Shown here one piece after another: positions 20,193 through 58,382 of a DNA stretch of 64,000 nt. The position numbers and the translations under genes were made by a program. Under the pieces are notes generated by a model. It saw nothing but the letters and a program-made list of their open reading frames with translations. It had not been told where the DNA came from and ran no database searches. Each line of letters starts with the position of its first letter. Positions within the stretch are counted from its first letter, which is position 1. This stretch comes from Escherichia coli (GTDB lineage: Bacteria > Pseudomonadota > Gammaproteobacteria > Enterobacterales > Enterobacteriaceae). The DNA is taken from NCBI RefSeq assembly GCF_044324785.1, contig NZ_CP172127.1; one strand, given 5' to 3'.

Positions 20193-20220
20193 AAAAAAAA
20201 GCCGGCATCATGCCGGCCCA
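20193..20220 (-). terminator. Strong rho-independent terminator (minus strand) in the yedS-yedR intergenic region
   Basis: GC-rich hairpin GCCGGCATCATGCCGGC, followed on the minus strand by eight T. Confidence 0.6.
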
Positions 20221-20429
20221 AAAAATATAAACAAGACGATAAAAGGCTAATAACGGGGTTATCATGACACAGAAATCAAAAAAGGTATAATTGAATTCGC
20301 TGCTAATATATTGTTTAGGTGAATTAATAAAACCATTACCATAGATAATAATAAATCTTCATTGCTGTTTTTCCGGTAATTATTGCCGTTGCGCAAAAAT
20401 TATCTATTTGTTCAAAAAATGATTGAGTC

Positions 20430-28618: not shown

Positions 28619-28708
28619 AACACATCAGATTTCCTGGTGTAACGAATTTTTTAAGTGCTTCTTGCTTAAGCAAGTTTCATCCCGACCCCCTCAGGGTCGG
28701 GATTTTTT
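28619..28708 (+). ncRNA. dsrA: DsrA small regulatory RNA
   Basis: AACACATCAGATTTCCTGGTGTAACGAATTTTTTAAGTGCTTCTTGCTTAAGCAAGTTTCATCCCGACCCCCTCAGGGTCGGGATTTTTTT matches DsrA as I remember it, including the terminator hairpin and U-tail. Confidence 0.9.
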
Positions 28709-48626: not shown

Positions 48627-50039
48627 TCAGGAATTACTCATTGCAGTAAATTGTTGGCTGAGATAGGTACTGGTGTTATTCAGTTTGCTCATCATGGTAT
48701 CTAATTGCGTAAACTGTGCAGTGTAACGCGCCACGGTGTCATCAATGCTGGCACTGACGGATAGATACTGTTTGGTCAGTTTTTTCAGTGTGGCGTTAAT
48801 ACTGTCCTGTGCGCTATCAATAATGCCATCATCGGCAAGGTAACCTTTTACCTCGGTGGCAATTTTGGTGGTAATTCCTGTTTCTTTACCATCGCCTACC
48901 AGCAATTCACGTACGGATGCTGTATTTTCATTCAGGACTTTTTTGAGTTTATCATCATCAATTTTCAGCTTACCCGTCGTGCCGTCCTGCTTAATCCCGA
49001 TCTCGTTTAATGTTTTGAAGGCACCGTCGCTGGCACCGTTTGCAAATTGTGCGCGGATGCCGCTTTGAATTGTACGTACAACGCTGTCTCCGAGAAGTGC
49101 ACCATTATTTTTATCTTGTGCTTCAGCACCTGGGTCTACTTCTTTATATTTTGTCAGGGTGTTAAAGGTGTCAATGAGGGAGTTATATGAATCCACCCAG
49201 CCTTTAATTGCTTCGGTTGCTTTATCGTTGCTTTTTGTCACCGTGACCCGGACGTCAGTGACTTTTTTGGTCAAATCGAGAGTCACTCCCTGAGGAGCAT
49301 CGGTAATTTTGTTACTTGAACGTTCAATATCGATACCGTTAACGTTTAGCTGTGCATTTTGCGCGTTAACCAGTTCCTTCATATTCCCGGTGTTGGTCTT
49401 GCTGTCATAAGCCAGCAGATCATTTAATTTACTGTCACCCTCAACAGATATGGTCATTTTATTGGCCAGACCTTCACTGGCGGTCAATACCAATTGATAG
49501 TTACCATCTTTGACTTTAACGATACTAGCGGAAATTCCACTATCGGCATCGTTAATGGCTTTGCTGATCTCATCCAATGACGTCTGATCTTTATTGAGCT
49601 TGATTTCCAGCGGCTCTTTACGACCGTCTTGGGTAATTTTTATTGTGCGTGTATCTGATGACTCATCACCCAGTGCATCTTTTGTTGATGCAATGATTGT
49701 CGGGGAATCAGTTCGTAAAGATTGCGCCTGCGCCAGTTGGGTTACGCTGATGGTATAGATACCGGGGGCAGCACCTGCTTCGGTGGAAACTTTAAGGTCT
49801 TCATTGCTACTGGTAACGGTAGTGCTTTTGAACAGATCGGCTTTATTTAACGCAGTATTTGCAGTCTGGAATTTTTCTAATGCACTTTTTAATGTGCCAT
49901 AGGCTGTCAGACGTGCGGTATTGTCACTCTGTTGCTGAGTAATTGGGTTTAAGCGTTTTTTTTCAGCGATGGTCAGGTTGTTTAGCAATGTATCCAGCGG
50001 CAGATTCGAACCAACGCCAAGAGATGTAAATGAAGCCAT
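48627..50039 (-). CDS. fliD: Flagellar filament cap protein FliD
   Basis: Start chosen at MASFTSLGVGSNLPLDTLL; the longer upstream ORF would overrun the sigma-28 promoter. Confidence 0.9.
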   Translation of the reverse strand: MASFTSLGVGSNLPLDTLLNNLTIAEKKRLNPITQQQSDNTARLTAYGTLKSALEKFQTANTALNKADLFKSTTVTSSNEDLKVSTEAGAAPGIYTISVTQLAQAQSLRTDSPTIIASTKDALGDESSDTRTIKITQDGRKEPLEIKLNKDQTSLDEISKAINDADSGISASIVKVKDGNYQLVLTASEGLANKMTISVEGDSKLNDLLAYDSKTNTGNMKELVNAQNAQLNVNGIDIERSSNKITDAPQGVTLDLTKKVTDVRVTVTKSNDKATEAIKGWVDSYNSLIDTFNTLTKYKEVDPGAEAQDKNNGALLGDSVVRTIQSGIRAQFANGASDGAFKTLNEIGIKQDGTTGKLKIDDDKLKKVLNENTASVRELLVGDGKETGITTKIATEVKGYLADDGIIDSAQDSINATLKKLTKQYLSVSASIDDTVARYTAQFTQLDTMMSKLNNTSTYLSQQFTAMSNS

Positions 50040-50076
50040 ACCTAATTCCTTTTGATTGCAAACAGTAGATAAGCGG

Positions 50077-50103
50077 GTTATCGGCAATTTGTGCGCAAAG
50101 TTT
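50077..50103 (-). promoter_or_regulatory. Sigma-28 (FliA) class 3 promoter for fliDST
   Basis: On the minus strand reads TAAACTTT-N11-GCCGATAA, a near-perfect sigma-28 consensus, about 40 bp upstream of the fliD start. Confidence 0.8.
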
Positions 50104-50197
50104 AATAGTTGATTCACGAAGATGATGCGCAGAGTAGAGTTGTATATTACGGATATTTCAGCCGTTAAGAAAAAACAGGAGAGAAACTAAAATTTTC

Positions 50198-50224
50198 TAA
50201 AGTTCGAAATTCAGGTGCCGATAC
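50198..50224 (+). promoter_or_regulatory. Sigma-28 (FliA) class 3 promoter for fliC
   Basis: TAAAGTTC-N11-GCCGATAC about 70 bp upstream of the fliC ATG. Confidence 0.8.
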
Positions 50225-50293
50225 AAGGGGTACGGTGAGAAACCGTGGGCAACAGCCCAATAACATCAAGTTGTAATTGATAAGGAAAAGATC

Positions 50294-51787
50294 ATGGCAC
50301 AAGTCATTAATACAAACAGCCTGTCGCTGTTGACCCAGAATAACCTGAACAAATCTCAGTCTTCTCTGAGCTCCGCCATTGAACGTCTCTCTTCTGGCCT
50401 GCGTATTAACAGTGCTAAAGATGACGCAGCAGGTCAGGCGATTGCTAACCGTTTTACGGCAAATATTAAAGGTCTGACTCAGGCTTCCCGTAACGCGAAT
50501 GATGGTATTTCTGTTGCGCAGACCACTGAAGGTGCGCTGAATGAAATTAACAACAACCTGCAGCGTATTCGTGAACTTTCTGTTCAGGCAACTAACGGTA
50601 CTAACTCTGACAGTGACCTGACCTCCATCCAGTCCGAAATCCAGCAACGTCTGAGTGAAATTGACCGTGTTTCTGGTCAGACTCAGTTTAACGGCGTTAA
50701 AGTGCTGGCTTCTGATCAGGATATGACTATTCAGGTTGGTGCAAACGACGGCGAAACAATTACTATTAAACTGCAGGAAATTAATTCCGACACACTGGGA
50801 TTATCTGGTTTTGGTATTAAAGATCCTACTAAATTAAAAGCCGCAACAGCTGAAACAACCTATTTTGGATCGACAGTTAAGCTTGCTGACGCTAATACAC
50901 TTGATGCAGATATTACAGCTACAGTTAAAGGCACTACGACTCCGGGCAAACGTGACGGTAATATTATGTCTGATGCTAACGGTAAGTTGTACGTTAAAGT
51001 TGCCGGTTCAGATAAACCCGCTGAAAATGGTTATTATGAAGTTACTGTGGAGGATGATCCGACATCTCCTGATGCAGGTAAGCTGAAGCTGGGGGCTCTA
51101 GCGGGTACCCAGCCTCAAGCAGGTAATTTAAAGGAAGTCACAACGGTGAAAGGGAAGGGGGCTATTGATGTTCAGTTGGGTACTGATACCGCAACCGCTT
51201 CTATCACAGGTGCAAAACTCTTTAAGTTAGAAGACGCTAATGGCAAAGATACTGGTTCATTTGCGTTGATTGGTGATGACGGTAAACAGTATGCAGCGAA
51301 TGTTGATCAGAAAACAGGTGCAGTTTCCGTTAAAACAATGTCTTACACTGATGCTGACGGTGTCAAACACGACAATGTTAAAGTTGAACTGGGTGGAAGC
51401 GATGGCAAAACCGAAGTTGTAACTGCAACCGATGGCAAAACTTACAGTGTTAGTGATTTACAAGGTAAGAGCCTGAAAACTGATTCTATTGCAGCAATTT
51501 CTACGCAGAAAACAGAAGATCCTTTGGCTGCTATCGATAAAGCACTGTCTCAGGTTGACTCGTTGCGTTCTAACCTAGGTGCAATTCAAAACCGTTTCGA
51601 CTCTGCCATCACCAACCTTGGCAACACCGTAAACAACCTGTCTTCTGCCCGTAGCCGTATCGAAGATGCTGACTACGCGACCGAAGTGTCTAACATGTCT
51701 CGTGCGCAGATCCTGCAACAAGCAGGTACTTCTGTTCTGGCACAGGCTAACCAGACCACGCAGAACGTACTGTCTCTGCTGCGTTAA
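50294..51787 (+). CDS. fliC: Flagellin FliC (H antigen); central variable domain differs from K-12
   Basis: Conserved N-terminus (MAQVINTNSLSLLTQNNLNKSQS...) and C-terminus (...QNVLSLLR) with a divergent middle; 497 aa. Confidence 0.95.
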   Translation: MAQVINTNSLSLLTQNNLNKSQSSLSSAIERLSSGLRINSAKDDAAGQAIANRFTANIKGLTQASRNANDGISVAQTTEGALNEINNNLQRIRELSVQATNGTNSDSDLTSIQSEIQQRLSEIDRVSGQTQFNGVKVLASDQDMTIQVGANDGETITIKLQEINSDTLGLSGFGIKDPTKLKAATAETTYFGSTVKLADANTLDADITATVKGTTTPGKRDGNIMSDANGKLYVKVAGSDKPAENGYYEVTVEDDPTSPDAGKLKLGALAGTQPQAGNLKEVTTVKGKGAIDVQLGTDTATASITGAKLFKLEDANGKDTGSFALIGDDGKQYAANVDQKTGAVSVKTMSYTDADGVKHDNVKVELGGSDGKTEVVTATDGKTYSVSDLQGKSLKTDSIAAISTQKTEDPLAAIDKALSQVDSLRSNLGAIQNRFDSAITNLGNTVNNLSSARSRIEDADYATEVSNMSRAQILQQAGTSVLAQANQTTQNVLSLLR

Positions 51788-51805
51788 TCGCCGCTATATT
51801 CTGCC

Positions 51806-51830
51806 AAACCCCGCTCCGGCGGGGTTTTTT
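51806..51830 (+). terminator. Rho-independent terminator of fliC
   Basis: AAACCCCGCTCCGGCGGGGTTTTTT hairpin plus T-run just after the fliC stop. Confidence 0.8.
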
Positions 51831-51952
51831 CTACCCGGCAAATAGCCGTAACCCCCAAATAACCCCTCATTTCACCCACTAATCGTCCGATTAAAAACCC
51901 TGCAGAAACGGATAATCGTGCCGATAACTCATATAACGCAGGGCTGTTTATC

Positions 51953-57699: not shown

Positions 57700-57924
57700 T
57701 TACTGACGGTAGGCTTGTTTAATTTGCTTAACCGTTTTGGAAAATACTGCAGCCTGGGTTTCGTCTTCGATCAGCGCAAGCTGTTTTTCCATCTTTAACA
57801 TCACGCGGCCCGCGTCAGCTTGTCCCATCGCCTGCAGCATCAGCGTCAGCATCGCTTTCAGGCAGGAGACTTCATTTGCCAGTTCTTGATTATTCTCGGC
57901 AGTAGAAAAATCAGGCGTACTCAT
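57700..57924 (-). CDS. yecF: Small protein YecF
   Basis: 74 aa; recognised. Confidence 0.85.
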
Positions 57925-58382
57925 TTATTTTCCTCGTCATGTTGCAATGAAAATTTGCGGTGAAAAATGTTAAGGCGGCGGAGTATACCATAAGCTTTGC
58001 TAAAAATAGCAGTGGTTGTTTTTTGAGCGTGATATCGGCAGTACTATAAAATACGTTAATATAATGACCAATAAATATTTTTATCATGAATGTTTTTTGC
58101 CCGTATTGTTCGGGTTAATTAATGTTACATATTCAGCGGGCTGATTTTCATTTTTGCTGAATAAAGTCAATTTTTGTCACATTTCATCGCCGGGCTTACT
58201 GTGAAACGATCCCGGAAGCCGTTGGTGACGGGCGTGACCATAACTGTGGACAATCGAATTTACAAAAACGAGAGAAAAATCGAATACCCACCATTTTTAA
58301 CGTTTCAAAGTTGCAATAAAAACCGCTAATATACGAATGACTAACTATCAGTAGCGTTATCCCTATTTCTGGAGATATTCCT

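Follow-up and report, generated by a model that had tools for sequence, protein, structure and literature searches.

Predicted divergent sigma-28 promoters of fliC and fliDST, with a candidate FlhD4C2 box between them, in an Escherichia coli flagellar locus

In the established model of flagellar gene expression, as given in the literature, FlhD4C2 activates the class 2 genes, including fliA, and FlgM holds FliA (sigma-28) until the hook-basal body exports FlgM. Sigma-28 promoters have the consensus TAAAGTTT-n11-GCCGATAA, and at aer the transcriptional start site is located 6 bp past the −10 element (PMC2859248). In Escherichia coli K-12, the motifs TAAAGGTTGTTTTACGACAGACGATAAC, upstream of fliC, and TAAACTTTGCGCAATTCAGACCGATAAC, upstream of fliDST, are the motifs of FliA ChIP-seq peaks with FAT (fold above threshold) values of 110 and 43, respectively, and deletion of fliA lowered fliC expression from 2319 to 11 (PMC4183435). 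Deletion of fliA was also found to reduce expression of fliC 78.8-fold and of fliD 9.9-fold (Zhao et al. 2007). The K-12 fliDST promoter has been classed as a dual class 2/class 3 promoter: FlhDC occupied it in ChIP-qPCR, expression in LB was 633 in the wild type, 3 when flhD or flhC was deleted and 356 (not significant) when fliA was deleted, and overexpression of FliA restored fliD expression in an flhD deletion (PMC4183435). The sigma-28 promoters of fliC and fliDST are thus already known, textbook elements of the flagellar hierarchy, and they are no new biology. Here we compare the described systems with the corresponding locus in a stretch of 64,000 nucleotides of E. coli DNA (the window; contig NZ_CP172127.1 of RefSeq assembly GCF_044324785.1).

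Sigma-28 motifs, start codons and leaders in the fliD-fliC intergenic region

The part of the window from ~47.8 to 53.3 kb corresponds to flagellar region IIIa of E. coli, and the features of the locus are collected in Table 1. Two sigma-28 motifs lie within the fliD-fliC intergenic region, each on the strand of its own gene, pointing at a late flagellar gene from leader distance. The motif upstream of fliD, PfliD (TAAACTTT-N11-GCCGATAA, 50104..50078), agrees with the consensus at 15 of 16 positions, with 1 mismatch, and the −10 element ends 38 nt before the fliD ATG. The motif upstream of fliC, PfliC (TAAAGTTC-N11-GCCGATAC, 50198-50224), agrees at 14 of 16 positions, the two mismatches being the last base of each octamer, and the −10 element ends 69 nt before the fliC ATG. 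From one −35 element to the other, measured between their outer edges, the distance is 93 bp (50105-50197). Apart from trivial palindromes, a search for inverted repeats returned a single 8-nt pair, which is formed by the two −10 elements (50079-50086 and 50216-50223). A preliminary description of this DNA had placed two divergent, near-consensus sigma-28 promoters of fliC and fliDST here, about 95 bp apart. Both points hold, and its coordinates were right to within one base, 50224 being exact and 50077 falling on the C just past the fliD −10 octamer.

Table 1. Positions of genes, promoter elements and other features in the window
Feature	Position	Strand	Description
amyA, fliT, fliS, fliD	~47.8-53.3 kb	−	Genes of the locus, minus strand
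fliC, fliA, fliZ, tcyJ	~47.8-53.3 kb	+	Genes of the locus, plus strand
fliD CDS	48627..50039	−	470 aa; start ATG 50039, not the ORF-maximal GTG 50117
fliD 5′ UTR	50040..50074	−	~31-35 nt, predicted from promoter geometry
fliD-fliC intergenic region	50040-50293		254 bp; both sigma-28 motifs inside
PfliD −10 octamer GCCGATAA	50085..50078	−	Perfect sigma-28 consensus
PfliD −35 octamer TAAACTTT	50104..50097	−	7/8 consensus; 11-nt spacer to −10
FlhD4C2-type inverted box	50122-50168		Left half 50122-50139, spacer 50140-50150, right half 50151-50168
A/T tract AAAATTTTC	50189..50197	+	Directly 5′ of PfliC −35; columns 70-100% conserved in 42 sequences
PfliC −35 octamer TAAAGTTC	50198-50205	+	7/8 consensus; 11-nt spacer to −10
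PfliC −10 octamer GCCGATAC	50217-50224	+	7/8 consensus
fliC 5′ UTR	50230..50293	+	~62-64 nt, predicted; AAGGAA Shine-Dalgarno
Leader hairpin 1	50232-50246		ACGGT/ACCGT, loop GAGAA; at 5′ end of predicted fliC leader
Leader hairpin 2	50247-50258		GGGC/GCCC, loop AACA; in predicted fliC leader
fliC CDS	50294..51787	+	497 aa, H2-type flagellin; start ATG 50294
fliA promoter sigma-28 motif	51901-51928	+	Recovered by weight matrix; one spacer base off K-12
fliL promoter sigma-28 motif	34344-34371	−	Recovered by weight matrix; identical to K-12
Sigma-28-like match TAACGTAT-N11-GCCGATAT	58031-58058	−	3 mismatches, 15.4 bits
Weight-matrix match GGAAGAAG-N11-GCCGATAA	44471-44498	+	17.2 bits; poor −35
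DsrA	28619-28705	+	Rfam gathering-score match
RseX	20194-20283	−	Rfam gathering-score match
Three tRNAs	61625-61924	+	Rfam gathering-score matches

The two motifs occupy the same alignment columns as TAAACTTTGCGCAATTCAGACCGATAAC (fliDST) and TAAAGGTTGTTTTACGACAGACGATAAC (fliC) of K-12 MG1655, and the K-12 promoters fliCp and fliDp share with them the genes served, the divergent layout, the alignment register and the 11-nt spacers. From −35 to −35, K-12 has 92 bp and the window 93 bp. Whereas the −35 element of fliD is identical in the two, its −10 element is ACCGATAA in K-12 and the better, consensus GCCGATAA in the window, and PfliC reads TAAAGGTT/GACGATAA in K-12 and TAAAGTTC/GCCGATAC in the window. 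The −10 elements are closer to the start codons in the window, at 69 nt instead of 76 nt for fliC and at 38 nt instead of 43 nt for fliD. Since the intergenic region is only ~57% identical between the window and K-12, the motifs are conserved against a diverged background. FliA dependence, which is demonstrated in K-12, would be expected of both promoters in this strain.

A weight matrix that excluded fliC and fliD was built from 23 K-12 FliA ChIP-seq motifs (Fitzgerald et al. 2014, PMC4183435, Table 2). PfliD ranked first of ~128,000 positions, with 20.3 bits, and PfliC ranked sixth, with only 14.2 bits (background mean, −21.7; standard deviation, 8.3). The A/T tract next to the PfliC −35 element may play an UP-element-like role at PfliC.

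The start codons of both genes were also considered. FliD translated from ATG 50039 begins MASFTSLGVGS..., and BLASTP aligned it with K-12 FliD from M1. The longest fliD open reading frame begins instead at GTG 50117, upstream of PfliD, and as the PfliD transcript cannot contain that codon, a fliD start there is excluded. Strain E2865 has an identical intergenic region, and in its RefSeq annotation the 254-bp segment is bounded exactly by the fliD and flagellin starts. The promoters had been said to confirm the start codons of fliD and fliC. The starts are right, as N-terminal homology and the RefSeq annotation of E2865 indicate, but the promoters constrain rather than confirm them, and PfliD excludes only the longer GTG reading frame. 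For annotation, the value of the analysis is that the promoter positions are fixed and that the over-long GTG start of fliD is excluded.

When the 6-bp gap between the −10 element and the start site at aer (PMC2859248) was applied to the two motifs, transcription was predicted to start at ~50230-50232 (+) for fliC and at ~50070-50074 (−) for fliD. Two hairpins were observed in the predicted fliC leader. Both hairpins are conserved across a set of 21 diverse Enterobacterales sequences, with compensatory changes from C-G to U-A at the loop-closing pairs in 4 of 21 and 7 of 21 sequences, and they may serve in stabilization of the mRNA 5′ end or in control of translation. The fliC leader of Salmonella, which we take to be 62 nt long, would put the fliC start of the window at A50232. 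No Rfam family was matched within or close to the fliD-fliC intergenic region. The gathering-score matches in the window, DsrA, RseX and three tRNAs, lie elsewhere (Table 1).

The fliC −10 element may also bear on a described repressor family. At host fliC promoters of GACGATAAC type, TldR repressors associated with prophage fliC_P use a GTTAT TAM, a short motif that TldR requires beside its target (bioRxiv 10.1101/2023.11.30.569447). In the window, the fliC −10 region (50217-50225) reads GCCGATACA, such that the opposite strand is without the GTTAT TAM, a difference that may be relevant to TldR action.

Probable class 2 input to fliDST

Between the two promoters lies an inverted box that comprises two islands conserved across genera, TAATGnnnnGAATAA ... 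TATTTCnnnGnCTA, with a poorly conserved spacer of ~11 bp between them. On the minus strand, the right half matches AAYGSN3AAATA exactly (50154-50166). The left half is a partial match and differs from the cross-genus consensus at three positions that are conserved elsewhere. The box is kept in both K-12 and the window, but the left half-site is weaker in the window. In Stafford's work of 2005, an FlhD4C2 site reportedly consists of two inverted boxes of ~17-18 bp, AAYGSN2-3AAATARCG, with a spacer of ~10-11 bp and a location upstream of the promoter. The published half-site consensus is tNAAcGCc(N)2AAATAgcg (Zhao et al. 2007).

The FlhDC half-site pattern was not enriched in the window, with 2 matches versus 1.05 expected. 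A sigma-70 consensus scan from 49800 to 50500 found no minus-strand site for a class 2 fliD promoter and, on the plus strand of the same range, one weak match (50165-50193; 1 versus 1.6 expected). A weak TATTAA that overlaps the sigma-28 −35 element of PfliD was seen by eye at 50107..50102. On the basis of its conservation and of the FlhDC occupancy of K-12, rather than of motif statistics, the box is most likely the class 2 activator site of fliDST, and FlhDC would be expected to bind it in the allele of the window as well. As a candidate site, the conserved box between the promoters would explain the dual control of fliDST. The class 3 architecture given in the preliminary description is therefore complete for fliC and incomplete for fliDST, for which K-12 has a dual class 2/class 3 promoter and the window a conserved FlhDC-like box.

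One alternative is that fliDST is run essentially by an FlhDC-activated sigma-70 class 2 promoter and that FliA-bound PfliD adds little, serving as a back-up for filament repair or swarming. Consistent with this alternative, fliDST expression in K-12 went from 633 to 356 (not significant) without fliA and to 3 without flhD, and the window has the conserved FlhDC-like box. We nevertheless consider it unlikely, as the evidence from PfliD itself points the other way: the window has a perfect −10 element, GCCGATAA, where K-12 has ACCGATAA, PfliD has the top weight-matrix score of the window, and the PfliD −35 element is 100% conserved across genera, which argues for selection. Moreover, the left FlhDC half-site is degenerate in the window, fliD expression was 9.9-fold lower in a fliA deletion (Zhao et al. 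2007), and overexpression of FliA restored fliD in an flhD deletion. The share of the sigma-28 promoter in fliDST expression may perhaps be small under some conditions, as suggested by the figures for the K-12 fliA deletion in LB.

We conclude that the 254-bp region very probably contains two divergent FliA (sigma-28) promoters, one for fliC and one for fliDST, together with an FlhD4C2-type box that probably adds class 2 input to fliDST. This reading is founded on the motifs and their statistical significance, on their orthology to FliA-bound sites of K-12, and on conservation of motif and spacing across genera. RNA polymerase holoenzyme with FliA would read both promoters, such that PfliC would give a monocistronic fliC mRNA with a structured leader of ~62-64 nt and PfliD would give an fliDST mRNA with a leader of ~31-35 nt. 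By the class 3 checkpoint known from the literature, export of FlgM after completion of the hook-basal body would free FliA, and only then would PfliC and PfliD fire. The box would most likely give fliDST an extra, sigma-70-dependent class 2 input. The cap protein and its chaperones could thus be made before FliA is released, and fliC would be strictly FliA dependent.

Conservation across genera and chance resemblance

Conservation was surveyed at 74 loci, which were collected by a search of one genome per species with the first 20 nt of fliC. In most of those from Enterobacteriaceae, the upstream site that best matched sigma-28 was 69 to 80 nt from the fliC ATG. On the other strand, the best-matching site was of the TAAACTTT-N11-GCCGATAA type and was located 91 to 95 bp away in most loci and 73 to 83 bp away in a few lineages. 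The divergent pair was present in Escherichia, Salmonella, Citrobacter, Enterobacter, Kluyvera, Leclercia, Lelliottia, Buttiauxella, Cedecea and Pluralibacter. When 42 unique enterobacterial sequences were aligned, the four octamers formed blocks that were 90 to 100% conserved within regions that were otherwise only 55 to 80% identical. The −35 columns of PfliD were 100% conserved in the 42 sequences, the GGTTATCGGC block at the PfliD −10 element was 90 to 100% conserved, and the TAAAG of the PfliC −35 element was invariant across genera. Apart from the FlhDC-type box, strong conservation is confined to the octamers and their ~93-bp spacing, the remainder of the region being more than 40% different from one E. 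coli strain to another, and this strain keeps its late-flagellar control elements intact.

The frequency of such motifs was determined over the whole window. At no more than 2 mismatches, PfliD and PfliC were the sole matches on both strands of the 64 kb; in 100 shuffles of the window, the mean was 0.04 matches, and none of the 100 gave two. At no more than 3 mismatches, one further match appeared, at 58032-58058, where 0.70 were expected. Short motifs do match at random, as the 3-mismatch match and the intragenic weight-matrix matches in the window attest, but the reading of PfliD, PfliC or both as chance resemblances to the sigma-28 consensus without promoter function has next to no probability and is rejected on shuffle statistics, conservation and orthology: two matches stand against 0.04 expected, both sites sit in a single intergenic region flanked by late flagellar genes with each facing its gene, both are orthologous to K-12 sites bound in ChIP-seq, and the flanking bases, unlike the motifs, have diverged between genera.

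Four other sigma-28-type motifs in the window are listed in Table 1. Two of them are the motifs of the fliA and fliL promoters. The minus-strand match at 58031-58058 lies ~107 nt upstream of a yecF-like open reading frame of 74 aa (57700-57924, minus strand); it is absent from the FliA ChIP-seq sites of K-12, and one such match is expected by chance. The match at 44471-44498 is antisense within a 401-aa open reading frame (44433-45638, minus strand), and it resembles the intragenic FliA sites of K-12 and is not in that list.

Intergenic alleles within E. coli and comparison with related systems

The intergenic allele of the window was found in 860 of 5426 complete E. coli genomes, with H types H2, H8, H11 and H21 among them. 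A K-12-like allele, defined by at least 95% identity, was found in 3187 genomes, and an HS-like allele, ~70% identical to K-12 with a 73-bp gap, was found in 1315. The divergent promoter pair is kept in all three of these deeply diverged alleles. BLAST of the intergenic region against E. coli genomes, even in distant mode, returned only the 860 genomes with the same allele, a restriction that reflects real divergence, as the identity to K-12 is ~57%.

The segment from 48627 to 51830, with fliD, the intergenic region and fliC, is a deeply divergent allele that resembles those of Salmonella and Citrobacter. FliD of the window is 50% identical to FliD of K-12, 86% identical to that of S. enterica arizonae and ~81% identical to that of Citrobacter. 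Between K-12 and Kluyvera genomosp. 3, FliD identity is 91%, and between E. coli HS and Pseudocitrobacter, it is 89%. In the flanking genes of the same strains, nucleotide identity is 96 to 97% for fliS and fliT and 99% for fliA. The 300 bp upstream of fliC has the same pattern of cross-genus affinity as FliD. To judge from these identities, fliD, the promoter region and fliC have been swapped together as one cassette. For the flagellin genes of E. coli, lateral replacement has been amply described (PMC7018530), and a non-exhaustive literature search found no description of the cap gene and promoter region as part of the swapped cassette.

A broader proposal would be that E. coli has at least three ancient, exchangeable fliD-promoter-fliC cassettes, each nearer to another genus than to the remaining E. 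coli alleles and maybe differing in the class 2/class 3 split of fliDST. The nearest genera would be Salmonella and Citrobacter for the window, Kluyvera for K-12 and Pseudocitrobacter for HS. The window allele combines a consensus sigma-28 −10 element with a degenerate FlhDC half-site, whereas K-12 combines the weaker −10 element ACCGATAA with a better FlhDC box. We advance the proposal as speculation and think it improbable. If it were true, replacement of the H antigen would also alter when the cap and flagellin genes are expressed.

Two observations concern fliC itself. The central region of fliC (50294-51787) is 99.2% identical to that of O103:H2 strains, by which the flagellin is of the H2 type, and this H2-type central region is found in 112 genomes, far below the 860 with the promoter allele of the window. 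Downstream, the K-12 fliC 3′ UTR contains a 156-nt REP-like insertion that is absent from the window (51788-51900) and from E. coli HS, and thus the 195-nt K-12 sRNA FliX is without a full-length counterpart in the window. What K-12 and the window have in common in the 3′ UTR is limited to the terminator CCCCGC-CCGGCGGGGTTTTTT and a stretch of ~20 nt that follows the stop codon.

Outside E. coli, the loci of S. enterica arizonae and diarizonae, C. sedlakii and C. amalonaticus were compared with the window. In each, the 28-mer of PfliC, TAAAGTTCGAAATTCAGGTGCCGATACA, is identical to that of the window, spacer included. As in the window, 69 nt separate the fliC −10 element from the ATG, and the −35 elements are 93 to 94 bp apart. 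The 300 bp upstream of fliC is 81 to 82% identical to the window, and FliD is 76 to 86% identical. The spacer sequences of PfliD, in contrast, are unlike that of the window, and the left FlhDC half-site is better in these Salmonella and Citrobacter loci (AATGCGCGGAATAA) than in the window (GATGCGCAGAGTAG).

Within the flagellar regulon of E. coli and Salmonella, fliDST is not alone in its dual input, as fliAZ, fliLMNOPQR, flgMN and flgKL likewise have FlhDC and FliA input on one operon. In flgMN and flgKL, however, the class 2 input is read-through from the upstream operon, whereas in fliDST, the FlhDC box is immediately 5′ of the sigma-28 promoter, within sequence that is shared with the divergent promoter of fliC.
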